Shown here: positions 1,964-62,264 of the stretch, one piece after another
Numbering within the stretch: the stretch's first letter is position 1
Layout of the letters: every line of letters begins with the position of its first letter
Source of the DNA: Eledone cirrhosa
Lineage: Eukaryota
Direction of reading: 5' to 3'
NCBI GenBank assembly: GCA_964016885.1
Contig: OZ024740.1
Span: forward strand, 110,732,001-110,796,000
DNA length: 64,000 nucleotides
Program-made: the position numbers and the translations under genes
The notes under the pieces: model-generated
Database searches by the model: none
Seen by the model: the letters and a program-made list of their open reading frames with translations, nothing else
What the model was told of the DNA's origin: nothing

Positions 1964-2521
1964 TTATTGTCTCTGTGATTTTCTAAACATTGCGTCTTTT
2001 CTGTGTGTAGATTCTATTTTTATTTCTATGTTCTTTAATTCACCCTTATGTTCTATTTTAGCATGTTGGTAGAGTACAGATGATTCTTTACTATCTTGAA
2101 GCTCTCGCCAGTGTTCATTTATCCTTTCTCCTATACTACGAGCTGTCTCACCTATGTACACTATATTCTTATCTTTACATTGTCCTTCACTACATCTTAT
2201 GCTATATACTACATTTCTAGTTTTACAGTTAATATGGGGGCTTAGTTTACAGATTATACATTTCTTATCTATACAGGGAGGTCTTTGAAAAGAGTATGTA
2301 TTGCTAATAAGTGTTTTTATGGAGGTACCTGGTCTTTCTACTATCTTAATATTGAGTTTATATTTATCTAGGGACATTCTGAATTTGTAAGCTAATTCAC
2401 CTCTAGGGGTTGTATTGATGAACATTACACTCTGGTTTTTATTGCTATCATACCATGAGTTTATTCTATTAACTTTATTCCTAGTTCTTTCTATTCTATT
2501 CCAAAATTTGCTCCTATACAA
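1964..2521 (-). pseudogene. PLE Cys-rich linker plus GIY-YIG endonuclease (frameshifted)
   Basis: PCIDKKCIICK...NCKTRNVVYSIRC...YIGETARSIGERINEH. Confidence 0.9.
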
Positions 2522-2581
2522 GGGGCAGGTCCCATTTGTATCCTTATTTACTATTTTTTCCCATTTGGTTCTGGCTCCTCT

Positions 2582-4120
2582 TTATACTCTTATCTTATCT
2601 CTCTGATTGTAACCAGAGAACTGCATACAGTGGATGAAGTGTTGTATGTGTCTCTCTAGTTCTTTCGGGTTGCACATGCGGGACACGTTTCTCATTACCC
2701 GTACCAAATCCGCGATCAGTATGTTGATTTTGGTGTGGTCCGACACAGCTGAGTTTCGGTGGATCAGATATTTGGAAGTCATGGGTTTGGCATAATGGGA
2801 ATGAAGGATCTGTTTTTTGTTATTGATAGTATCTAACCAGAGCTCTGTGTCTAGTACATGTAATCGATGGTTGGGGTGTTTGCTTGGGTAGTCTATAGTA
2901 ACTCTAATACTCTGGTGGATGGAGTTAGCTATTTGCTGGATGCTTTCCATGGTGTTTTTCTCTAATTCTTGACTGTTCTCTAGTGGGGGGGGGGGGGGGG
3001 TTACTACGATGTTTATATCATCAACGTAGCGGGAGTACATTATCAGGGTTAAGAGGTTGCTGTCTTCTAATTGTTCTTTAAGTTTAAGTTTAAGTCTATT
3101 GTCCCACCATACCATGAATAGGTTAGCTATGTCACCTCCAATGCTAACACCAATGGCTGCTCCCTCCTCTTGGGCATATGTTTTTCCATTAAATTTGAAT
3201 ATATGTTCCTTAAGGGTTAATTTTATACTGGCCCCCATCGCATGTGCAATCATTTTCTTTAGTTCATCGTGGTTTACGGGGGTCCGTATGGGTCTGGTCC
3301 ACCCGTTCAATCTATCTGTGTGGATTTTCTTGGCCATTGAGGTAATGGTAGGTGGTCTGCCTCTTGCTGGTCTTGTAGGGCACAGGTTGCTAAAGTCATA
3401 TGTATCTAGATAATTATTACTATAGGTAAGTTTAAGTAGGAGTCTCAGCTCACTGGTATCAATCCCACGGAATTCAACATTGCTCTCACTGATCATTTCT
3501 ACGCATTTCTCCACAGCAAAATCCACGTCAATAGATGGATATAGGGACACAACATCCATACTGCCTATTATGCAGTTTGTTAGGTCCCTAGATCGGTTAC
3601 CTTCGCTGATTCTGCTGAGGAGGTCCTCCGTGCTGTCACATATATCTGCGGACATTTCAATGATGGGGCGTATGATCAGAGAGAGGAAGTAGGAAAGTCT
3701 GTAGTTACTAGCAATGTTAGCTCCACAGTGTTGGTGGTCCTGTGACAGGGTCACTGCTCATTTTATGGTCTTTTCGAAGCCCATACAACGCTGGCACGTC
3801 ATTTTTCCAGGTCTGGACGTTGTTGGCAGTCCTTTTGTTGGGCTGCATTATGTTTGTCCACATCATCATATGGGCATTGAGGGTTTTTACCCTATCCTCA
3901 TGCTCTTGTGGTGTTACTTCTCTTGTGTTAGTGATTTGGGGTTGCATTGCCTGGATGTAGTTTGACAGACTGTCTGTTGGAAAGCATGCAATCTCTCCAT
4001 TACGCGAGCGGTGCATGAGCTTACGCAAGACATTTGCAGATTTTTCTCCCAGTTGCTGGGCCTCGATTCTATGTTGCTTCTTACTATACTGTTCTATAAT
4101 GTTTCTAAGTTTAGATCTAG
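2582..4120 (-). pseudogene. PLE reverse transcriptase (frameshifted pieces 2582-3754 and 3717-4120)
   Basis: LYGLRKDHK, GSMDVVSLYPSID, QEEGAAIG, YSRYVDDINIV, LDTELW, HYAKP, thumb ending FSGY. Confidence 0.92.
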
Positions 4121-4192
4121 CTATACTAAACAAAAACAAGATGGCGTAGGATAGAACAAAGGAGAGGCACAAAAACAAAGAAAAGAATCCCA

Positions 4193-4235
4193 CTCACTGA
4201 AGAGGTCACAGAATGTTTGACGAAAGAACTTTGAC
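4193..4235 (+). ncRNA. Hammerhead ribozyme in inverted pLTR
   Basis: CUGAAGA-G-GUCA...UGAC-GAAAG aa CUU-UGAC; inverted copy of 1658-1698. Confidence 0.65.
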
Positions 4236-5190: not shown

Positions 5191-5450
5191 GTTAAGCCTA
5201 CATTACGTTTATTGGTTGGTGACATGCGTTTCTCTATTGATCAGCTCAAGGTTCGATCTGTATCGACCTGGCTCGACTCTGGAATCAAAAGCTTCTCGGA
5301 CCTCTGTCATTACTACAACAGAGGTTCGAGGAGCTTTTGATTCCAGAGTCGGCCCAGATCGATGCAGATCGAACCTTGAGCTGATCAATAGCGAAACGCG
5401 CGTCACCAACCAATAAACGTAATGAAGGTTTAACAATTCGTCCTTGTATT
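5191..5450. repeat. Fold-back element with about 120-bp arms carrying the 3' half of a hammerhead (GAAAC-GCGC-GUC)
   Basis: Imperfect palindrome centred near 5312; right arm has a short extra tail followed by TA repeats. Confidence 0.8.
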
Positions 5451-5538: not shown

Positions 5539-5590
5539 GACGTAAAATAAGAAAATTTTAAAAATTAAAAATTAACTTACTAAAATTTTC

Positions 5591-5672
5591 ACTCCAACTA
5601 ATTAGTTTCTGTAATGGGATAAATATAGTTACACAATGTAACTATCGAGAATTCATTACGTCATCAGGGAGT
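5591..5672 (-). ncRNA. Type I hammerhead ribozyme with extended stem II
   Basis: Minus strand ACUCC-CUGAUGA-cGUAAUG...(ATAGTTACA ttg TGTAACTAT hairpin)...CAUUACa-GAAAC UAAUUA GUU-GGAGU; palindromic stem III. Confidence 0.88.
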
Positions 5673-5690
5673 CTATTCTCAGCTAACTGT

Positions 5691-7129
5691 ATGAATTTAG
5701 CGTCTAAATTCATACAGTTCGACATAGAGAGCTACTATGCTTCAATCACCTTACCGCTACTTACTGCCGCCTTGGACTTCGCCGAAACACTTGTGCCCAT
5801 CACCGACCAGGAAAGAAAAATCATCCTCCACGCCAGGAAGACAGTCTTACTCTTTGACGACTCTAAATGGATAAAAAGAGCTCCCGACTCACCCTTCGAC
5901 GTCAGCATGGGCGCCACGGATTCGGCGGAGGTCACAGATCTTATAGGATTATTCCTAATAGCCAAACTCATCGATATGTTTCCTGCATTCGGTGGTGGAT
6001 TGTACCGTGATGATGGGCTCCTTACCCTTAAAGGGTACAACCCCATTAGTACAGATCGGGTCCGGAAACAATTATTCAGCTTCTTCCGCGACTGGGGATT
6101 TAAAATAACCCTACAAACGTCCCTGACCCGAGTAAACCCGAGTAAACCCGAGTAAACTTCCTCGACCTCGAAAACGACCTGTACTACCCATACAGGAAAC
6201 CTAATGACAACCTGCACTACATCCACCGCCGATCAAACCATCCTAGGAACATCACCATCAACCTGGTCAAAAACATCTCCCTCCGCATATCCCGTTTGTC
6301 AGCTAATGAGCGGATATTCGATGAACATGCGCCTTATTACAACCAGGCCCTCAAGCGGAGTGGTTTCCGGGAGGAAATATCCTACTGTCCAGCTCCCATT
6401 AGCGGAACCAGCAGGAGACACCGCCGCTCACGCAATGTAACATGGTTCAATCTTCCCCACAACGCAGAGGTGACAACTCCCATCGGGAAACTATTCTTTA
6501 GGCTCATTGAAAAACACTTCCCACTACAACACCGCTACCACAACATAATTAACAAAAATACCATCAAACTCTCTTACAGCACTACACCAAACTTCGCACA
6601 AAACATCGCCTCCTCTAACAACAAAAAACTCAACCCCGATGGCAGAAATAACCTAAATAGCAGTGGAGAGCCGACCAGGAGGTGCAACAGTCCGGATAGA
6701 TCCATTTGCCCACTCGACAATAGATGCAGAGACCGTAATGTGATCTACCAGTGCAACGTGAGGACGGACACCTCCAACAAAGCTTATATAGGACTAACCG
6801 CATGTGACTTCAAGACCCGGCTATACCAACATAGACATACCTTCCGAAACCCGGCCCGGCGTCACGCCACTACACTTTCGGGCCACATATGGGACCTCAA
6901 GGACAACAACATCACCTATGATCTCACTTGGAGATTACTGTCCAGAGCCAATTCTTACACGGGAGGACGCTGTCCGTGCAATTTATGCTCGGAGGAAACT
7001 TTACAAATGCTGTTTTCGACGGACCAACTCCTAAACAAGAACGTTGAACTGGTTACTGCATGTAAACATAGATTGCGTAGGACCTACATCGCCCTCAAAC
7101 CCCATAATGACCCGGGGGGGAGGGGGTAA
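5691..7129 (+). pseudogene. Naiad-type Penelope-like RT plus GIY-YIG (5'-truncated, frameshifted at a CCCGAGTAAA x3 duplication)
   Basis: FIQFDIESYY, FDVSMG, GLYRDDGL, YRKP...SNHP, WFNLP, KLSYS, CPLDNRC, NVIY...YIGLT, CNLC, CKH. Confidence 0.9.
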
Positions 7130-8349
7130 ACTAGGGCTATAACACCCCACTTGCCGATTTTGCAATGGGTAACCCCTGCTTGCCAAGGGAGACGTAAGAT
7201 CTTTTTATTCTTTTATCGCTTCCTTTATTTCCTTCTTCCCCCCATCCCTCCTTAGTCCTTCTACCCCAGTTCTTCTTCTTTGTCGGCGTCTTCTCTCGCC
7301 CACCCGAGGCTGCCCTTTGGCCCCTTGTAGCCTCAGTACCCCCACCCCCTCCGCTAGTCTATGATAGATTTGGCGGACTCCGCTTTTTATAGCAGTTGTG
7401 TTAGACCTCGGATACTTGCCCCCTTTTCCCGACCGCTCCCACTATTTTCCGTGCCTTCTATATTTCTTAGTGGCACTTATGCCTTATTTTCTCGTTTCAG
7501 TATTTCTTTCTTCTCTTTTCTTTTGGGCGGGGTGGATTCTGAATTTATTTTTCCGTATTCTACCTTTACTTCGTACGAACTTATATAAGATCTTTTAGAG
7601 TTAGCATTAGTATATATTTTTTTCGGGACTCAGAATTATTATCTCGTACTAGTTTACTTTGCTGCACTGGGTGGTTGCTGGCATTGTGCCCGGGATAGAA
7701 ACCTTTATTATTTATTTCGTGGTAGTTTCTTTAGTATTTTGGCCCCATTTGTTGACCCGTCACCGTATGATTTACGTACTTATACCTCTTAAAAGGGTCT
7801 TTGCCTATTCAGTCCCACCTAGTTTATTTACTTATTTCGTTATTTCTTTATTTCTTTCTTTATTTCTTTCTTTCTTTATTTATTTATTTATCTAGCCTAA
7901 CAATAGCTAGAGACTTAGGTCGTAGAACTTACTTCACTTTTTTCTTTACACTTATTCGCTTTTCATCACTCTCAGTATTTTTTCTTTCATATATATATTT
8001 TTACCCCTCATTGTTCTACCTACCGTTCCGACTTCCCCCCCCTCCCCCTCCCCAGTATCTTCTTTGACCTCATGCCCAGCTGTAGCTGGCACTACCAACG
8101 CATGATTGGGTCTACTCCACCCCCTCCCCTTTTTCACCTACTGGCAGGTTTAGCCACCATCTCCCCTACTAATTTGCAATCACAGAATTACTACTGACTT
8201 TTGACAATCACTTTGACCATATATGGAATTACCCTTTGAGAAGCTCAGCCGTCGGGGTCTTACTGGTTCCTATTACCCACTCTACTACCCTGAGTATTGA
8301 GTACTTTGGTGCGTTATGGTCCACCTGGTTCCTTACCACATTTCCTTCG

Positions 8350-8400
<51 letters not shown>

Positions 8401-19128: not shown

Positions 19129-20180
19129 TGATGAAGGGTGATACCCAGAAACAGTCTCTCCAGTTCTGTGTACATGCCAACACAAGGGCAATATTGAAGT
19201 GCTCATTCTACTGACATGGCTATAAAATTAAGGCGAATGTTATTATTAATATTAGAAACAATTATTAATATTCGAAAAACTCAGATTACATTTATTGTAT
19301 TCAGCCATGTAGAGCGAACATTTTCTTTGTTATTTGAATTTGGCAAAACCAGCCATTTATCACTCGTATACAGGAAACTGACTGGCCAGTCTGCTGATAT
19401 GCAAATCTGGCTGATCAGAGGATCTGCTATTATGCAGATCTGACTGATCAGCCAGTCTGCTAATATGCAAATCAGGCCGATCTGTCACTGTGTATTTTTG
19501 AAAATAGCATATATTTTCACTAGCTCTGACAGTTTGGCAGGTGAATAGTGAGCTGTACTGATGAAGGGTGATACCCAGAAACATTAGTGTCAGCAGTTCT
19601 GTTCACATGCCAACACAAGAGCAATAATGAAGGGTTCATTCTACTGCCATCGCTATAAAATTGAAGCTTGTTTGCGTAATTGCAAACGAATCGAATGTTA
19701 TTATTAATATTCGAAAATAGGGCGATGAATTGGCAGTATCGGTAGAGGGTCGGACGCCATGCTTTCCAGCATTGTTACGTCCCTTTACGGTCTGAGTTCA
19801 AATTCCGTCGAGGTTAACTTTGCCTTTCATCCTTACCGGGTCGATAAAATAAAGTACCAGTAATGAACTGGGTAATTTCTGGCCTTGTGCCAAAAGTAGA
19901 AAGAATTATTAATATTCGAAAATGGTGAGTGTATTGTAAGTATCGGTAGAGGGTCGGACGCCATGCTTTGGCGCATAGACTTACGGCCCTTGCCATTCTG
20001 AGTTCAAATCCCGCCGAGGTTAACTTTGCCTTTAAGCCTTACCAGGGTCGATAAAATAAAGTACCAGTAATGCACTGGGTACTTGCTGGCCTTGTGCAAA
20101 AAGTAGAAACAATTATTAATATTCGAAAAACTCAGATTACATTTATTGTTTTCAGCTATGTAGAGCGAAAATTTTCATTT

Positions 20181-24764: not shown

Positions 24765-24829
<65 letters not shown>

Positions 24830-24945
24830 TAAGAGGAATTCCAACTTTGTCTGATTTACTCGTTTTATTTACAATCCTTTAAAATATATATAATATGGTA
24901 TTATAATGAAATAGTATGATAGAATATTAAATTCTAAGTGTTAAT

Positions 24946-24984
24946 TGAACAAGTACTTTCATGCTTTCGCAATCTTCAGGTTCA
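24946..24984 (-). ncRNA. Minimal hammerhead ribozyme
   Basis: UGAAC-CUGAAGA-uUGC gaaa GCAu-GAAAG ua CUU-GUUCA. Confidence 0.88.
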
Positions 24985-25035
24985 TGATATGTGGTGACAG
25001 TCGAATTTGCAATTTTCAACTGTCACCACATATCA

Positions 25036-25074
25036 TGAACCTGAAGATTGCGAAAGCATGAAAGTACTTGTTCA
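25036..25074 (+). ncRNA. Minimal hammerhead ribozyme
   Basis: TGAAC CTGAAGA TTGC GAAA GCAT GAAA GTAC TT GTTCA; palindromic AAGTACTT stem III. Confidence 0.88.
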
Positions 25075-25237
25075 ATTAACACTTAGAATTTAATATTCTA
25101 TCATACTATTTCATTATAATACCATATTATATATATTTTAAAGGATTGTAAATAAAACGAGTAAATCAGACAAAGTTGGAATTCCTCTTATTAATATAAT
25201 CTATACACAATCATACACACCCGTGTATATTTACCTA

Positions 25238-25337: not shown

Positions 25338-27850
25338 TATTGTTATACTTGGTGAGGGTCATATTTGTGTAATAATATTGCCAGAATTAATACCAGAACA
25401 CACTCACTGTTTGGTTGGTTTTCGCTTCTGTGTCTTTTATATCGGTTAATTTAATTTATTCGGTCCTCAATGTTTCCATTGACTGACCAACGGTCAAAAA
25501 TACAGATATAATTTAGACACAAACACATATATATAGTCTAACAAAGTTCTTTCGTTGCACATCTGCAACATCGTCAGTGGTGCCATTATGTTTCCTCCCG
25601 TTGTATTGTATGCCTACGCCCTCTTATTTAGTCTGTTAATTAATTAATTTATTTTTTGTCTTCTCTGCGCATGCGTTTGGGTGTGTGTATAGTGTTTAAT
25701 GTGTGTTCGTGTTTGGGTGACTGTGTATTGGTTATTGTATTCTATCTTAGTTTACTAGTGTGTGTTTATATGTGCTTGTTGTTATTGTGCTTGTGTATGT
25801 ATTTATTTACTTATTTATCTCTTAGGTTGGTATTGTTTGTTTGGGTGTTGTTGTTATTCCATGCATTTTTTCTGTTTAACCTTGGCTTTATAAGTTCTAT
25901 TTCGCTGACCTCTCTGATTTGCCTATCTGCTGGGTCATTTCTATGTTTAGATATTATTCTAATTTCTATGTTACCGTCGTTTTGTTGTCTGGCATGTTCG
26001 TATAGTACTGAAACGTTTTATCGTCCTTTTAGTTCCCCCCAGTGTTGGTCTATCCTTTCACCTATGCTGCAAGCTGTCTCGCCTATGTATGTTGTTGTCA
26101 TGTTTCTGCAAGTATCCTCTGTACATCTTATTCTATAGACTACGTTTCTAGTTTTACAGTTTATCCGGGGGTTTACTTTACATATAATACATTTCCTATT
26201 AGTACAGTGGGTTTTCTTAAAAGGGTAGGTTTTGCTGATCAGGGATTTAATGGTGGTTCCTGGCTTTTCTACCACCTTAATCTTTAAGTGGGTCTTTCTC
26301 AGGGCCTTTCTACACTGGTTAGCTAATTTCCCTCCAGGGGTAGCGTCCACAAATATGGCACTCTGTATCTCTGGTTGTCGTACCATGAGGTGGCTTTCCC
26401 TATCTTATGTCTAGTCCTATCTAAGCTATTCCATGATTTGCTCCTGTATAATGGGAAAATTCCTTTCATGTCCAGTTCTATGATGGTCTTATACCTCTCC
26501 GTGGCTCCTTCGTATACTCTGATTCTGTCTCTTTGGTTGTAGCCAGAGAACTGCATGCGGTTTATGAAGTGTTGGATGTGTCTTTCCATTTCTATTGGGT
26601 CGCACATGCGGGACACGTTCTTCATCACTCGTACCAAGTCTGCGATCATAATATTAAACTTAGCACTACTGGACATTGCTGAGTTTTTGAGTATCAGGTA
26701 TTTGGAGGCCATGGGTTTAGCATAGTGTGAGTGGAGAATTTGGGCTCTCTCATCTATAGTGTTAATCCAGAGTTCCGTGTCTAATACAGGTAGTCTATTG
26801 TTAGGGTGTTTGGAAGGGTAGTCGATAGTTACAGTTATACTCTGGTGTATGGAATTAGCTATCTGCTGAATGCCTTCCTTTGTGCAACGTTCTAAATCAA
26901 ACTTGTTAGTACTCTCTTGTGGGGATGTCCTTATTACTATATTGATGTCGTCTACGTAACCAGAGTACATGATGAGGTCTATGGAGCACTCATCAAGGAG
27001 ATCTTTGAGTCTCCTTTCCCACCATACCAGATCTTTGAGTCTCCTTTCCCACTGCTCCATTATTTTTGGTGTAGATCTTCTCGTTGAATTTGAATATGTG
27101 GCCCTTTAGGGTAGTTTTGATACTAGCCTCTATTGCATGTGCGACCATTTTTCTTACCTGATCATTGTTTTGGGGGGTCCGTATAGCTTTGGTCCACCCA
27201 ATCCACCTTCCCATGGGAGTCTTTTTCGCTATTGAGGTTATGGTGGAGTGTCTACCTCTTATGGGTCTACTGGGGCAGAAACATCTAAGGTCATGGCTGT
27301 CTAGGTAGTCAGTGTCATAGGTAAGTCTAAGTAGGAGGCCCAGTTCGTCTGTGTCGACGTCGCAGAACTCCACCTCACTCTCAATGATCATCTCCACACA
27401 TTTTTCCACAGCAAAATTAATGTTAATGGATGGGTACAGTGATACCACATCCATACTGCCTATTATGCAGTTGGATTGGTTTTTGTTTTTGTTGCACTCA
27501 CTGATTCTGCTGAGGAGGTCCTCTGTACTGTCACATACATCTGGGGACATCATCATTATGGGGAGTATTACCATTGAGAGGAAGTAGGAGATCCTGTAGT
27601 TGCTAACTACATTTGCTCCGCATACATGTCTTGTTGGTGTTCCTGTTATCGGGTCGCCGATTGTCTTGTGGTTTTTGCAGAGCCCATACAAGTGTGGTAT
27701 GCCATTGTTAGACGCCTGTAAGTTGTTGGCAGTGCGTTTGCTTGGCTTTAGGATGTCAGTCCATATCATCATGTGAGCGTTGAGGATTTTCTCTCTCCCA
27801 TCATGTATTTGCTGTGCAATTTCGCTCGTGTTGGTGATGTGGGGTTGCAA
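25338..27850 (-). mobile_element. 5'-truncated Penelope-like element (RT 26323-27853, GIY-YIG about 25890-26386, pLTR with HHR 25541-25580)
   Basis: GSMDVVSLYPS, YSGYVDDINIV, LPVLDTELW, NCKTRNVVYRIRC, YIGET; relative of the 1461-4397 element. Confidence 0.92.
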
Positions 27851-29646
27851 CAAATGAGGGGGCAGCCATTGGCCTCAGCATAGCTGGTGACGTTTCCAAA
27901 CTTTTTATGGTATGGTGGGAAAGTAGACTCAAAGATCTCCTTGAAGAGTGCTCCATAGACCTCATCATGTACTCTGGTTACGTAGACGACATCAATATAG
28001 TAATAAGGACATCCCCACAAGAGAGTACTAACAAGTTTTATTTAGAACGTAGCATAATGGAAAGCATCCAGCAGATAGCTAATTCCATACACCAGCGTTT
28101 AACTGTAACTATCGACTACCCTTCTAAACACCCTAACAATAGACTACCTGTATTAGACACGGAACTCTGGATTAACACTATAGACGAGGGAGCCCAAATT
28201 CTCCACTCACACTATGCTAAACCCATGGCCTCCAAATACCTGATACTCAAAAACTCAGCAATGTCCAGTAGTGCTAAGTTTAATATTCTGATCGCAGACT
28301 TGGTACGAGTGATGAAGAACGTGTCCCGCATGTGCTACCCAACAGAAATGGAAAGACACATCCAACACTTCATAAACCGCATGCAGTTCTCTGGCTACAA
28401 CCGAAGAGACAGAATTAGAGTATACAAAGGAGCCACGGAGAAGTATAAGACCCTCATAGAACAGGACATGAAAGGAATTGTCCATTATACAGGAGCAAAT
28501 CATGGAATAGCTTAAATAGGACTAGACATAAGATAGGGAAAGCCACCTCATGGTACGACAACCAGAGATACCAGAGTGCCATGTTTATAGACGCTACCCC
28601 TGGAGAGAAATTAGCTAACCAGTGTAGAAAGGCCCCTGAGAAAGACCCACTTAAATATTAAGGTGGTAGAAAAGCCAGGAACCACCATTAAATCCCTGAT
28701 CAGCAAAACCTACCCTTTTAAGAAAACCCACTGTACAAATAGGAAATGTATTATATGTAAAGTAAACCCCCGGATAAACTGTAAAACTAGAAACGTAGTC
28801 TATAGCATAAGATGTACAGAGGATACTTACAGAAACATGACAACAACATACATAGGCGAGACAACTCGTAGTATAGGTGAAAGGATAGACCAACACTGGG
28901 GGGAACTAAAAGGACTAAAAAACGGTCAGTACTATACGAACATGCCAGACAACAACAACACGACGGTAACATAGACAACATAGAAATTAGAATAATATCT
29001 AAACATATAAATGACCCAGCAGAAAGCAAATCAGAGAGACCAGCGAAATAGAACTTAGAAGGCCAAGGCTAAACAGCAAAAATAAGTGGAATAACAACAC
29101 CCAAACAAACAATACCGACCTAAGAGCAGTATAAATAAATAAATAAATACATACACAAGCACAATAACAACAAACACATATAAACACACACTAGTAAACT
29201 AAGATAGAATACAATAACAAATACACAGTCACCCCAAAACGAACACACATCAAACACTATACACACACGCAAACGCATGTGCAGAGAAGACAAAAAAAAA
29301 ATAAACATAAAAAATAAATAAATAAAAAGACTAAATAAAGATGGCGTAGGCATACAATACAACGGGAGGAAACATAATAGCACCACTGACGATGTTGCAG
29401 ATGTGCAACGAAAGAACTTTGTTAGACTATATATATGTGTTTGTGTCTATATTATATGTGTATTTTTGACCGTAACATTGAGGAACGAATAAATTAAATT
29501 AGCCGATATAAAAGACACAGAAGCGAAAACCAACCAAACAGTGAGTGTGTTCAGTTATTAATTCTGGGAATATTATTACACAAATATGACCCTCCCCAAG
29601 TATAACAATATTTCTTTCGACACACATATCAAAAACCTCGCATTAC

Positions 29647-34877: not shown

Positions 34878-35060
34878 TGGATTGGTAGTATCAGTAGAGG
34901 GTCGGACGCCATGCTTTCCAGCATAGTTACGTCCCTTTATGATCTGAGTTCAAATCCCGCCGAGGTTGACTTTGCCTTTCATCCTTACGGGGTCGATAAA
35001 ATAAAGTACCAGTAATGCACTGGGTAATTTGCTGGCCTTGTGCCTAAAGTAGAAACAATT
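34878..35060 (+). mobile_element. Meta-type tRNA SINE
   Basis: Full family consensus. Confidence 0.88.
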
Positions 35061-35137
35061 ATTTATTTGTTAATTATGCGGTTAGTGTACTTTAATGTAA
35101 TTTTAAATGTAGGTATTTGGTGTAATATTAATGCTGG

Positions 35138-43561: not shown

Positions 43562-43790
43562 GCGAAGGAAAAGTGGTAAGGAACCAGGTGGACCATAACG
43601 CACCAAAGTACTCAATACTTAGGGTAGTAGAGTGGGTAATAGGAGTAAGTGAGACCCCGACGGCTGAGCTCAAGCCGTTTCGACGGCTAATTCTGTACTC
43701 AAGAAGCAATCGATAATTCGACGGCTAATTGAGTACAGAATTAGCCGTCGAAACGGCTTGAGCTCAGCCGTCGGGGTCTTACTTACTCAT
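43562..43790. mobile_element. Family B fold-back element (hammerhead 3' half)
   Basis: GAATTAGCCGTC-GAAAC-GGCT TGAGCTCA GCC-GTC-GGGG in inverted arms; (TA)n flanks. Confidence 0.82.
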
Positions 43791-43805: not shown

Positions 43806-44046
43806 TATTGTTATATTTTGGGAGGGTCATGTTGCCAATAAGAAACACACGCACCGGATGCTTTCACTTCAATTTATTATAAATTAAATTCATAAATTTA
43901 GGAATTTATAAATTTCCGGTTGGTTGGTTGGTTCCACAACCAGACGATTGTTCATATATTGTCAAAGTTCTTTCGTCACACATTAACAATATCGGTTTCA
44001 ACACACGTTTTCAGATAAAGAATCTTGCTAAACAAATTCAGAAACG

Positions 44047-44047
<1 letters not shown>
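43806..44047 (-). mobile_element. pLTR fragment of the 1461-4397 family joined to its inverted tail
   Basis: Matches about 1520-1678, stops in HHR stem II (TTCGTCACACAT), then reverse complement of 1461-1525. Confidence 0.85.
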
Positions 44048-44293: not shown

Positions 44294-44630
44294 GTAGAGG
44301 TTATATTTAATTTGTTGGGATACAACAAGCAAAATATTTTTATAAGTGATATAAAGCACTCAACAAATTATTTGAGTAAATATACAATTATTTGAGTAAA
44401 TATACAAATGGAAACTTTATTTATAAAACCATATTTATTTCATTATACATATTTCAAGGGCCACCAAAGTAAACTATAAGGGTATGTCAATATTTATTTA
44501 TAAAACTAACCTATATTATATTTTATCTGATGAAAGCGCACCATAGTTTACTTTGGTGGCCCTTGAAATATGTATAATGAAATAAATATGGTTTTATAAA
44601 TATAGTTTCCATTTGTTAATATATTGTAAT
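44294..44630. mobile_element. Family C inverted pLTR pair; intact HHR 44521-44582 (+), left arm truncated in the stem II loop
   Basis: TTTTAT-CTGATGA-AAGcgCACCA..TGGTGgccCTT-GAAA TATGTA TA-ATGAAA. Confidence 0.82.
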
Positions 44631-45092
44631 ATATAATATATATATATATGTGTAAATATATATCCTCCTCTCTCTCTTTCTCCCCTGTATCTCTATTTGT
44701 TGTCTTTTTTATATTCTTCTTTCCGTCGTCCATATTTTTCTTTCTTTCGTTCTTATCTATTTATCTATTTTTTTTATTCATTTTTTTCTTTTGTTTCATT
44801 TCTTTCTTACTGTATTTCTTTTCCTCTTTTATTTCCTTCATTTATCCTTTCTTCTATTTTTCTATCATTCTTTCTATGTATTTCTCTTTGTTTATTTCTC
44901 TTTGTTTATTTCTCTTTGTTTATTTCAATGTTATCTTTCTGTTTTCTTTTCTTCTATATTTATTTATTTGTTTCTTTCTTTATTTTCCTTCCTCTCTTTC
45001 TCTCCTCCTTTTTATTTCCCTCAACTTCTCTCATTAATTCTCTATTCCGCTCCTCGTTTCTGTTCTTCCTTTCTTCCTCTCTCTCTGTCTAA

Positions 45093-47931: not shown

Positions 47932-48348
47932 CACGGGTGTGTATGATTGTGTATAGAAGATTATATTAATAAAAGGAATTCCAACTTTGTCTGATTTACT
48001 CGTTTTATTTACAATCCTTTAAATTTATAATGATATTATAATGAAATAGTATGGTAGAATATTAAATGTTAAGATTTAATTGAACAAGTACTTTCATGCT
48101 TTCGCAATCTTCAGGTTCACATTATGTGGTGACAGTCAAGTTTGCAATTTTCAACTGTTGAAAATTGCAGCCTTGACTGTCACCACACATTATGAACCTG
48201 AAGATTGCGAAAGCATGAAAGTAGTTGTTCAATTAACACTTAACATTTAATATTCTACCATACTATTTCATTCTAATGCCATTATAAATTTAAAGGATTG
48301 TAAATAAAACGAGTAAATCAGACAAAGTTGGAATTCCTTTTATTAATA
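47921..48348. mobile_element. Family D hairpin element, second copy, with HHRs 48081-48119 (-) and 48193-48231 (+)
   Basis: Homologous to 24822-25240 with the tail on the opposite side; centre TTTTCAAC-T-GTTGAAAA. Confidence 0.9.
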
Positions 48349-48362
48349 TATATATATATATA

Positions 48363-48549
48363 AGAAGGAAATGTGGTAAGGAACCAGGTGGACCATAACG
48401 CACCAAAGTACTCAATACTTAGGGTAGTAGAGTGGGTAATAGGAACGAGTAGGACCCCGACGGCTGAGCTCAAGCCGTTTCGACGGCTAATTCTAGACAG
48501 AATTAGCCGTCGAAACGGCTTGAGCTCAGCTGTCGGGGTCCTACTCGTT

Positions 48550-48553
<4 letters not shown>
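48363..48553. mobile_element. Family B fold-back element centred on a GACGGCTAATTCT-agac-AGAATTAGCCGTC hairpin
   Basis: Inverted arms with GAAAC...GTC; (TA)n flanks. Confidence 0.85.
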
Positions 48554-48592
<39 letters not shown>

Positions 48593-48967
48593 ATAATAAT
48601 AATAATAAATTTGAAGACTAAAATCCAAAGAGGGCTCGATAAGGATAGATATATATCAAATATATAAGAACCCTAGAGCAAATATTTATTAAGGGTGAAA
48701 GCAGCGATTATTTGCTTAAACTTTAATCTGTTATTTTAAGAAAAATATATTCTTTTCTTTTCAATGGCTGACAATACCTGACGGCCCCACTCGAATAAGG
48801 TAGTTATTTAACCTATAAATGGGGCCCTAACAGGTACTACTACTCCGAGCCAGAGCAGACCTGGGAGTTATGACAACTAAGGGGTAACTCCACATACCCC
48901 GCAGCTCCTGAACACCCGAACTGGAGCCTTGCCACTGAGTGTAGTTTAATGTCATACCCAGGACAAA

Positions 48968-49011
<44 letters not shown>

Positions 49012-49020
49012 GTATATATA

Positions 49021-49452
49021 GGAGAAAGTATGACCCCGACGGCAGAGCTCAAGCCGTTTGGACGACTATTTCTGGACTAAAGTAAGAGTTTTTTTAGTCT
49101 GGTAAATAAATAGCCGAACTTATGGGAAGATTGTAGTTGTCAAGGGATTGGTCAAAATTTGTAGCAGACACAAAAAAGTCTATCATAGCAGTGGGGCGGG
49201 GAGGGGGTGGCTGAACTTTCTTGTAGAACAATAGGGGAGTGGTTCGTCTTTTTTGTTTAGGAGCTGATCCTTCGTAAACAGCATTTGTAATGTTTCCTCT
49301 GAGCATAAGTTACACGGACGGCTTCCTCCCGTGTAAGAGTTAGCTCTGGACTGTAAGCTTCAAGTAAGATCGTATTACCCACTCTACTACCCTAAGTATT
49401 GAGTACTCTGGTGCATTATTGTCCATCTGGTTCCTTACCACAACTCCTTCGT
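49021..49452. mobile_element. Diverged family B inverted pLTR element
   Basis: GACCCCGACGGCAGAGCTCAAGCCGTTT at left, family tail at right, (TA)n flanks. Confidence 0.7.
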
Positions 49453-49472
49453 TATATATATATATATATATT

Positions 49473-49963: not shown

Positions 49964-50341
49964 TCAGGTTATCAATAATGTAGTGATAATATATCGTTAC
50001 GTTAGAGATGAACAGCGTACGTGCAGGTTTGCTCAACGAGTATAAATTATATTCCGGAGAAATGTAGAAAGGATGAATATAAAATGAAAGTGCTTTTGTT
50101 AAAAAAGGAATTTATTAGGTATTGACATGTTTCTGTAACAGACCGAATACCTATGTATCGCTGCTTGCGTAATCATATAATGTTAGCAAGTATTCGATAG
50201 CAAATATTTGCTATCGAATACTTGCTAACATTATATGATTACGCAAGCAGCGATACATAGGTATTCGGTCTGTTACAGAAACATGTCAATACCTAATAAA
50301 TTCCTTTTTTAACAAAAGCACTTTCATTTTATATTCATCCT

Positions 50342-50346
<5 letters not shown>
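49958..50346. mobile_element. Spacer-less perfect palindrome (141-bp arms, 50065-50346) with one-sided tail; hammerhead 3' half GAAAC-AU-GUC
   Basis: Centre at 50205/50206; (TA)n flanks. Confidence 0.85.
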
Positions 50347-50412
<66 letters not shown>

Positions 50413-53522: not shown

Positions 53523-54055
53523 ATATTCGTTAGTTAAGCAAAACAAGACCACAAATTTCACACGGAAGACATTGTTAAAAGATTGTCAACATATTTTAGT
53601 TTGATGTAAGGAATGTAGAGAATAATAATAATAATAATATTAATAATAATAATGTCCGTTTACAATTGTTTCGACAGCCTCGACAGATGAATACTGCTTG
53701 ATTATGGCTGACAACTGATGCAACCAAGACACCATAGTGAAAACCAATGTATGGAACATTATATTATGTAACATTCTTTCATTATTTTAATTTATATTCC
53801 TTTGAAGTTCCGATGAGCCGCTCTGTCTTTTAAATATGTTAATTATTTTCAACTGAACCAGATCAATTATGATATATAGTCATCTGATCCAGAAATATCA
53901 TATGGAGTAGCGAAACAATTGTAAACGGACATTATTATTATTAATATTATTATTATTATTATTCTCTACATTCCTTACATCAAACTAAAATATGTTGAAA
54001 ATCTTTTAATAATGTCTTCCTTGTGAAATTTGCGGTCTTGTTTTGCTTAACTAAC

Positions 54056-54061
<6 letters not shown>
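53523..54061. mobile_element. Inverted pLTR element (150-bp arms) with hammerhead 53807-53926 (+) having a stem II region of about 95 nt
   Basis: GTT-CCGATGA-GCcgCTC...GAGtaGC-GAAAC AATT GTA-AAC; left arm stops at GTTTCG. Confidence 0.8.
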
Positions 54062-60325: not shown

Positions 60326-60334
60326 ATTATATAT

Positions 60335-60706
60335 GACACAAGGACAGCAATTATGCCAGTGTATTACTGGTACTTTATTTTATCGATCCCGTAAGGATGA
60401 AAGGCAAAGTTAACCTCGACGGGATTTGAACTCAGACCATAAAGGGCCGACCCTCTACCGATACTGCCAATCCACCACCCTTTCTGTTAATGATAATAAT
60501 AACCATTGTAATATTTCATTATACTATTGGCAGTATCGGTAGAGGACCGGGCGGCTTGCTTTGACGCATAGAGTTACGGCCCTTGCCATTCTGAGTTCAA
60601 ATCCCGCCGAGGTTAACTTTGCCATTCCTCCTTACGGGGTCGATAAAATAAAGTACCAGTAATGTACTGGGTAATTGCTGGCCTTGTGCCAATAGTAGAA
60701 ACAATT
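60335..60706. mobile_element. Head-to-head pair of Meta-type SINEs (60335-60480 -, 60526-60706 +)
   Basis: Family consensus on both strands. Confidence 0.85.
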
Positions 60707-61077
60707 ATACTAGGATGGCTAATACAGATAATACATGAGCTAATAGAAAATAATCGATGATCCAGCGGTTACAAATGTCGCTTATTTCATTGATATCAGT
60801 TATAAAAAAATAAAAGATAACTTCATGTCATATGACAACTAAGGCTAGCTTGAATCATTTCTGTCCTTATTACTAATTTACAGATTTCTATTTATTGGCC
60901 TTTTAACTCTGAATGGTATCGTTGGAGCGGTGTCATGCGGCGTGACTTGGACATTTAAAAAACCTTGGCAGCGTCCATCCCGCACCAGGTTTGATCAAAA
61001 AGATATCATTCAGAGAAACAGAAAACAAAAAAAAAACAAAAAAAAAAAAATGAGAAAAGAAATATCAACTCCAGCAC

Positions 61078-61685
61078 TCGACTGGTATTATATTTATCAA
61101 AGGATGAAAGGCAAAGTTAACCTCGGCAGGATTTGAACTCAGACCGTAAAGGGACGTAATTCTATACTGCAAAGCAGTAGAGGGTTGAACTCCATGCTTT
61201 GCAGCATAGAATTACATCCCTTTACGGTCTGAGTTCAAATCCTGCCGAGGTGAACTTTGTGCTTCATCCTTACGGGATCGATAAAATAAAGTACCAGTAA
61301 TGCACTATGATAATTGCTGGCCTTGTACCAAAAATAGAAACAATTATATTTATCAACCCCGAGAGGATGAAAAGAGAAGTAGACTTCGGCGTGATTGGGA
61401 ACTCAAACCACAGAGAGCCAGAATGAATACCGAAAAGCATTCTATCCTAACGAGTCTGCCAATATGCCGACTATTATCAATTTCGCCACACGGCGGTGGA
61501 TTGGCAGTATCGGTAGAGGGTCGGACGCCATGCTTTGCAGCATAGAGTGACGGCCCTTGCCATTCTGAGTTCAAATCGCGCCGAGGTTAACTTTGCCTTT
61601 CATCCTTACGGGGTCGATAAAATAAAGTACCAGTAATACACTACTGGTGAATTGCTGGCCTTGTGCCAAAAGTAGAAACAATTAT
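61078..61685. mobile_element. Cluster of four Meta-type SINE copies in alternating orientation
   Basis: Inverted pair 61078-61345, decayed minus copy about 61345-61470, full plus copy 61490-61685. Confidence 0.82.
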
Positions 61686-62264
61686 TAATTTCGCCACAAA
61701 AGTAAAAAAAAAGAGAAAAAAAAAAAAGAATCAGACAAAAAAATAACAGCCACAATAACAACAAACATCACTTATGATGTATTAGGAAGACGAGTTGTCC
61801 AAAGTGGTTCTAGCTATGTATGAGACAAACACACGACCAGTGAATTAACATTTGCTGAACGGGTATCATATGACGCGAAGAAAATCCGAAAAGTTCCACA
61901 AGGTTCTAACAATTCAAACGTTGATATATTATTATAAAAACGGAGAGACAAGAAAATATGAACTTGATACCGTAATGTCATCATCATCTGCAGTCATTGA
62001 GTCCTGACTAGAAACCAGACGATGTGACACGTGCCTTATTTAATACACGTGACATGTAGGATCACAGGCATATATATATATATATACAGAGAGAGAGTGT
62101 GTGTGTGTGTGTCAACAACTGTTTACACATATTTATTAGAATGCTGTTGAAGTGTGTGTACATTTTTCGGGACACCTTATATATATATATACAAAGATAT
62201 ATTCATATAAAATAAATGTAGTTTTATATGCATATACAAACTCACTCTAGCCCACATTATCTCT

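Follow-up and report, generated by a model that had tools for sequence, protein, structure and literature searches.

The window analysed here (C1:110732001-110796000, 64,000 nt of a 3.0-Gb animal genome) abounds in (TA)n and in fragments of Penelope-like elements (PLEs), and the palindrome at 48363-48551 raises the question of why a retroelement copy should fold back inside its own hammerhead ribozyme. An earlier note had proposed that the PLE reverse transcriptase (RT) stalls at stem II of the ribozyme and that the cDNA snaps back or switches template to create MITE-like hairpins, in unrelated families alike. In what follows, families carry the letters A-H, labels coined for this analysis; positions are counted in nt 5′ of the ribozyme GAAA box (-17, for instance), and domain II is the stretch from the core box to the GAAA box.

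The palindrome was confirmed, with (TA)n on both sides of an inverted arm (48363-48498) and a direct arm (48499-48551) (Table 1). As the earlier note had read it, the 3′ half of the ribozyme is kept and the CUGAUGA half is absent; the two GAAA boxes lie 30 nt apart. The central hairpin, in contrast, is a product of the inversion and not native stem II, on whose 3′ strand the junction sits, 13-17 nt 5′ of GAAA. The upstream half missing from the palindrome is known from native long copies of the same family, family C, in which the core is mostly of the U3-A8 type and not CUGANGA. The NUH site is retained on both arms, in line with the claim that the templates had kept their cleavage site; use of uncleaved template has already been reported in vitro (PMC11167929, sections consulted).

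Table 1. Features of the focal palindrome and of related insertions in the window
Feature	Coordinates	Strand	Basis
(TA)n target, left flank	48347..48362	.	sequence
PLE tail, 79 nt, left arm only; continues into the reading frame in ORF-linked copies	48363..48441	-	
Inverted arm: stem I 3′ strand, NUH, stem III, GAAA box, 17 nt of stem II 3′ strand	48442..48498	-	
Inverted-arm landmarks: NUH site; GAAA box	48459-48461; 48478-48481	-	
Direct, tail-less arm: 13 nt of stem II 3′ strand, GAAA, stem III, NUH, stem I 3′ strand	48499..48551	+	
Direct-arm landmarks: GAAA box; NUH site	48512-48515; 48532-48534	+	
(TA)n target, right flank	48552..48589	.	sequence
Family C ORF, RT and C-terminal GIY-YIG, here split over two frames	5562..7129	+	
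3′ UTR and pLTR with tail of the ORF-bearing family C copy	7130..8352	+	
Second family C palindrome, other subfamily; arms reach ~20 nt into stem II	43562..43789	.	
Third family C copy: ORF end, UTR and pLTR (49018-49374, -) joined to inverted tail-only arm (49370-49471)	49018..49471	-	
Family D palindrome; centre 5307-5318, 5′ of the core; whole ribozyme on both arms	5191..5434	.	
Family A arm ending in loop II, joined to inverted tail	43806..44047	-	
Family B: inverted arm stops in loop II; ribozyme of the partner complete, CUGANGA box at 44527	44294..44631	.	
Family G palindrome; centre ~42 nt 5′ of the ribozyme core; also at 24822-25198	47962..48350	.	
Family H: arm that stops in loop II, with an inverted tail attached	48610..48750	.	
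Family E palindrome; centre 72 nt 5′ of GAAA, in 92-nt putative domain II of a doubtful ribozyme	50062..50349	.	
Family F: inverted arm ends at stem II base; partner complete, variant core 53810-53816	53523..54061	.	

Long copies of family C (3,985 exact matches) supply the missing half, namely stem I, a variant core and a native stem II that is an imperfect hairpin of 54-56 nt, and complete the order of a type I hammerhead, with stems read by eye: stem I, core box, stem II closed by G10.1-C11.1, GAAA, stem III and NUH. Among 35 de-duplicated long copies, the 5′ core was U3-A8 in 23, C3/A8 in 6, U3-A8 with another base 7 in 5 and of some other form in 1, and none was CUGANGA; a U3-A8 core variant has been reported in Schistosoma PLEs (PMC4209133, sections consulted). 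Unconstrained RNAfold returned the long stem II as the minimum free energy structure in one of six folded copies, and the start of the native apical loop was placed by eye and by the fold of one copy (L102). An Rfam scan of the window contained no hammerhead among the matches listed (150 of 168), which were microsatellite-driven miRNA hits apart from one tRNA-like hit. Stems II and III contain two similar GC-rich motifs, and an identical G-to-C substitution was seen repeatedly in both, as a rule on a single arm.

Three loci with the family C ribozyme (L418-L420) matched the ORF region of the window (5704-8249) at 88-96%, which upholds the derivation of these insertions from PLEs encoding RT and GIY-YIG. 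The protein P0001, taken from L420, is a single open frame in which an RT catalytic motif and a C-terminal VIY..YIG could be recognized by eye, along with RWR in place of RWK, DKT, a CxCx5C linker and CxxC and CxH around E and N, with no CCHH; a Pfam search of P0001 gave no hit. When these motifs were compared with the Hydra-clade list in section 11 of PMC8557442, family C could be assigned, by motif only, as a probable Hydra-clade PLE, and the focal palindrome belongs to this Penelope-like family with Hydra-clade protein features. As expected for that clade, family C insertions target (TA)n. The family departs from it in having a tandem unit of ~3.53 kb versus less than ~3 kb, and a variant core with a long stem II versus a canonical ribozyme. 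Head-to-tail arrays of at least four such 3.53-kb units, 99% identical to the query, were seen at C1:437200346-437211089 and C1:91476487-91487264; a circular template or local duplication could be their source. In the ORF-bearing copy of the window, the 3′ pLTR is missing half of stem III and the greater part of domain II, and the deletion (8242-8262) lies between two short direct repeats. The second palindrome carries a junction insert that re-copies nearby arm sequence, and the third copy is not broken in stem II.

Genome-wide, a 14-nt motif from the 3′ half of family C had 72,889 exact matches, against 1 for a control motif. When gaps between the GAAA boxes of head-to-head ribozyme 3′ halves were counted up to 90 nt, 17,849 pairs were obtained, 7,465 of them at 0-30 nt, 9,724 at 31-60 nt and 660 at 61-90 nt. 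The 17,189 pairs (96%) at most 60 nt apart contain 49% of all motif matches. Breakpoints were profiled on all 100 consecutive motif matches in the first 10.78 Mb of C1, a sample that is partly non-independent, 48 copies being the arms of 24 pairs. Ends inside domain II were found in 83 copies, and 63 of these fell at -12..-22. Per nt, the rate of ends was 0.012-0.017 at 0..-11, 0.08-0.11 at -12..-22, 0.011 at -23..-31 and 0.002-0.003 at -32..-111, a drop of 25-50-fold beyond ~-22, where the native apical loop starts. Fourteen copies extend at least 248 nt. The pattern reaches beyond pairs, since among the 52 copies that do not belong to an exact-match pair 34 likewise extend no further than -28, and about 10 of the unpaired copies adjoin TA or only an inverted tail (by eye). 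A further sample of 30 loci was excluded from the rates because its query began 16 nt 5′ of GAAA and was biased for that reason. The pile-up of breakpoints in stem II claimed by the earlier note was borne out, on a very large scale, for the focal family.

Its extension to a general rule was not. For each comparator family we took the first 30 matches along the genome, reading G and H by eye, dropping one chance match (L236) from E and leaving unscored as ends the internal deletions in two A copies (L161, L177) and one D copy (L251). Domain II ends amounted to 2/30 in A (domain II of 18 nt), 0/30 in B (~30 nt), 0/30 in G (12 nt), 1/30 in H (13 nt), 5/29 in E (92 nt), 7/30 in F (95 nt) and 11/30 in D (60 nt), every family lying below C (Fisher p of 3e-6 or less). 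Because domain II lengths differ, contrasts within a family carry more weight: in F, the 7/30 in domain II compare with 8/23 in the following 95 nt. The D value is raised, yet it has no control window because this short element ends near -80..-120. Family D (1,525 exact matches) is a non-coding, ribozyme-bearing element of ~200 nt that resembles a dispersed retrozyme monomer. Two families have hot zones elsewhere. In G (7,181 exact matches), 18/30 copies end at -47..-66, outside stem II, and the gap is 96-142 nt in 14 of the 21 pairs listed; in H (33,919 exact matches), 12/30 end at -17..-27, within the core and the stem I 5′ strand. Thus, breakpoint mapping against the hammerhead helices, which the earlier note had called for, revealed an excess of ends in stem II beyond chance for family C only, and no such rule in the seven comparators.

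The geometry that the earlier note had seen in unrelated families of the window held in part. At four loci one copy does end in domain II, in families where such ends are uncommon; the palindrome at 43562-43790 fits but is family C itself, and that at 5191-5434 contradicts the geometry. One arm ends in domain II at 43806-44047, 44389-44477 (family B) and 53523-53673, whereas the partner ribozyme is complete at 44527 and 53810; the fold at 50062-50349 lies within a putative domain II, but its ribozyme is doubtful. Several side observations were made on these families and their surroundings. The G hot zone lies at the 5′ side of an 8-bp hairpin predicted, by eye, upstream of the ribozyme; the H core has A at position 4; and ends in family A (L161-L190) cluster near -84..-131, several of them at a motif that resembles a YY1 site. 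Other decayed PLE ORFs occur at 1964-4193 and 25845-29113 (weak RVT_1 and GIY-YIG Pfam hits), beside family A-type ribozymes. A many-copy repeat of ~190 nt, with some inverted pairs (19700-20129, 34878-35066, 60334-61693 and others), is probably a SINE. Sequencing runs of other organisms (X5-X12) share part of the window, and the tail and arm of family C have matches in X5 contigs.

We next consider the anatomy of family C pairs, of which 93 were parsed from the first 27.1 Mb of C1. The tail was present on exactly one arm in 90 pairs, on both in 1 and on neither in 2. Within those 90, the tail arm was longer in 41, the tail-less arm in 33, and both were equal in 16 (p=0.42); looser parsing gave 42/34/14. 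The RNA position at which an arm stops is the same whether or not it bears the tail, even though the 3′ ends of the two kinds of arm are ~80 nt apart, and a stop at a fixed distance from the RT start was ruled out on this ground. The two arms came from the same subfamily in 84 of 86 classifiable pairs (1,335 versus 10 genome-wide), which fits either one RNA copied twice or one source active at a time. Junctions were distinct in 79/93 pairs and comprised 29 inserts, 16 blunt joins and 48 cases of microhomology, the last figure being inflated by mismatch tolerance; inserts often repeat adjacent arm sequence. End-joining repair leaves inserts of this kind, which repeat nearby sequence. A non-native T followed -21 in 12 of 15 pair arms reaching that position, where 23 of 25 references have A; it lies beyond the native three-U tract, and its presence points to an event at the cDNA end, either A-stutter or A-tailing. 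Seven arms reaching -21, from two overlapping samples, kept the native A and ran on to -22..-28. Three tail-bearing copies (L317, L318 and L510) start within 1 nt of the predicted cleavage site and possibly represent a minority of self-cleaved templates.

These features bear on how the palindromes arose. The snap-back route of the earlier note, in which a single cDNA that has stalled in stem II turns back and serves as its own primer for the second arm, would account for arms of one subfamily, for microhomology at the junction and for a tail confined to one arm. It predicts, however, that the tail arm, being the first strand and having to contain the loop, cannot be the shorter of the two, and self-copying cannot yield sequence that the tail arm lacks; yet in about 10 of the 100 profiled copies and in the window copy at 49018-49471 (by eye) the partner contains sequence that the tail arm does not reach. 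That the tail arm is often shorter and stops before its partner's sequence indicates two separate cDNAs, and we consider snap-back improbable, above all as the main route. Still less probable is a spread from a small number of short palindromic masters that behave as non-autonomous, MITE-like elements, or a loss of the central part of long palindromes once they had inserted. In favour, the commonest gap is exactly 30 nt (15/90 pairs), and arm sequence recurs in some inserts, as might be left by copying twice over. Against these readings stand the distinct junctions, the occurrence of the same junction in both orientations relative to the tail, the end position shared by unpaired copies and the long inverted copies that persist intact (723 nt at 100% and 1,866 nt at 98.6%). 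The label MITE-like is apt for the shape of the insertions, but a MITE has symmetric TIRs and is uniform inside and in size; the diverse junctions and single tail of these insertions do not suit it, and their partner is an RT and not a DNA transposase. As to a fold-back artefact of the assembly or library, the short-read run that matches best (X1) may be the assembly's own sample. X1 contigs nevertheless span the centre of a family C palindrome (in family copies other than 48363-48551). Several structural regularities also make an artefact unlikely, to a degree that we find it hardly credible: the tail sits on a single arm, (TA)n flanks the insertions left and right, an arm can have substitutions that its partner lacks, and the phenomenon is limited to one family.

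Whether stem II blocks the RT as such could be judged from loci where the enzyme met the ribozyme again after a whole unit. We fetched 30 loci with the tail running into the ORF, drawn from the best 40 of 774 candidates scored. Twenty-four had the GAAA anchor, and of these only 1 ends in domain II while 23 run at least 115 nt; the remaining 6 either stop on the 3′ side of it or bear a deletion. Read-through also held for 17 of 18 loci once tandem neighbours were collapsed. Compared with 3′ copies of similar subfamily (26/35), the difference had p=4e-8, or 1e-6 on the 18 collapsed loci. Since 23 of 24 upstream ribozymes were crossed, stem II is not an intrinsic block, contrary to the stalling that the earlier note had supposed.

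The best explanation, which we judge about as apt to be right as wrong, is that two cDNAs start on the two nicked strands of the target, stop in the ribozyme nearest to initiation and are then end-joined. The element protein would nick both strands of the (TA)n target, and the cDNAs would start at two internal sites, one giving the arm with the tail and the other the arm without it. Both, probably copied from the same RNA, would stop in the ribozyme beside the start sites, within the long stem II, and their ends would likely be joined by end-joining repair. PLE RTs are not known to carry RNase H. The read-through of ORF-linked copies makes an extra assumption necessary, namely that the block acts only near initiation; it may be imposed on a newly started RT by a folded and probably protein-bound ribozyme. 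This stop model is favoured by the coincidence of the cliff with the apical loop, by ends that are native to -28 and by the rarity of ORF-linked copies starting at -18. Against it, a long domain II is also found in families E and F, where ends do not accumulate in this way, the hot zones of G and H lie at other positions, and the long stem II was obtained for only one of the six copies folded without constraint. The pair anatomy fits, by analogy, what is seen in vitro with an anole PLE, which cuts and extends the two target strands, copies uncleaved RNA and has a tail delimited by a pair of RT start sites; in the same system the size of the products depends on where the RNA begins and does not change when the ribozyme is mutated, which counts against the stop model (PMC11167929, sections consulted).

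A close rival of the stop model is run-off ("strong-stop") at an internal transcription start, a possible though less probable source of the same two cDNAs and the same joining, in which the RT falls off the RNA 5′ end near -18. The RNA would begin at an internal pLTR promoter or at a cut in loop II, and long copies would have circular, tandem or read-through RNAs as their templates. Where a template ends, A addition without a template is to be expected. The sharp cliff upstream of the hot zone, internal passes without a stop and family-specific hot zones not bound to one helix all suit run-off, as does an initiator-like hexamer, noticed after the fact, that coincides with the commonest end of families C, G and H. 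Further support comes from the dependence of product length on the RNA 5′ end in vitro (PMC11167929) and from the internal promoter with Inr in the pLTR of D. virilis Penelope (sections consulted of PMC2377424). On the other hand, unit-length copies should pile up at the main start, yet a beginning near -18 was seen in just 1 of the 18 ORF-linked loci; G, as would derive from a cap, is not in excess at -19 in copies abutting TA (G 50 versus C 71, a confounded count, as both letters can be native in some subfamilies); and some truncated arms hold native sequence to -22..-28.

Returning to a stop near initiation, it is conceivable, though we think it unlikely, that the long stem II acts as a telomerase-like template boundary that anchors a dimeric PLE protein at the start; most starts would abort there with A-stutter, two short cDNAs would be joined into a hairpin, and only RTs that escape would become processive. 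If so, the hot zone of each family would map its protein-bound boundary, and the ribozyme fold would have a role other than cleavage. Stop and RNA 5′ end are two clean rival predictions, for which family C offers more than 17,000 natural products with nucleotide-level endpoints. The symmetry of the arms and the one-tail rule give genomic support to both-strand priming, hitherto seen in vitro for one element. If transcribed, the dispersed, near-perfect hairpins of 55-60 bp could feed dsRNA pathways. The significance is nevertheless below the earlier note's estimate, because stem II breakage is not a general rule.

Among known systems, L1 twin priming likewise uses both target strands as primers and gives an inverted and a direct part without overlap. 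Family C differs in that the same 55-60 nt are copied twice. In telomerase, a related RT, a helix 5′ of the start site serves as template boundary element and bounds synthesis; its likeness to the family C stem II is an analogy only. PLE hammerheads described before (Cervera and de la Pena 2014, PMC4209133) share with family C a type I ribozyme in the pLTR, the U3-A8 core and pairs of ribozymes on opposite strands, but in the sections consulted these pairs are whole motifs ~100-700 bp apart, the descriptor used could not find halves broken in stem II, and stems II and III are much shorter than in family C. The EN+ PLEs of Craig et al. 2021 (PMC8557442) have a head-to-head inverted truncated copy, a tail at one end and (TA)n targeting; as far as the consulted sections go, they have no fixed breakpoint and a tail of 30-40 nt, whereas in family C both ends lie within ~11 nt in most events and the tail is ~80 nt. 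That paper states the origin of tandem and inverted PLE insertions as an open question. The PAc Poseidon element studied in vitro (Frangieh et al. 2024, PMC11167929) has, like family C, a tail continuous with the ORF and, as we infer for family C, two internal RT starts, cutting and extension of both target strands and an uncleaved template; its consulted sections report no ribozyme stop and do not deal with cDNA joining, and family C belongs to another clade, with a stem II of 54-56 nt. A preprint (bioRxiv 10.64898/2026.07.22.740005) deals, in the part consulted, with tandem retrozymes. Our literature search, which covered papers without their supplements, found neither a breakpoint hot zone in a PLE ribozyme nor a restriction to the first pass, and the ribozyme tables of PMC8557442 may include family C. 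The inverted truncated copy, one-sided tail and TA targeting (PMC8557442), the ribozyme pairs and U3-A8 core (PMC4209133) and the uncleaved template (PMC11167929) are already published in the sections consulted. Set beside them, the hot zone is genuine, extensive and informative about mechanism, but it belongs to a single family; it varies a structure already known and does not amount to a general rule.
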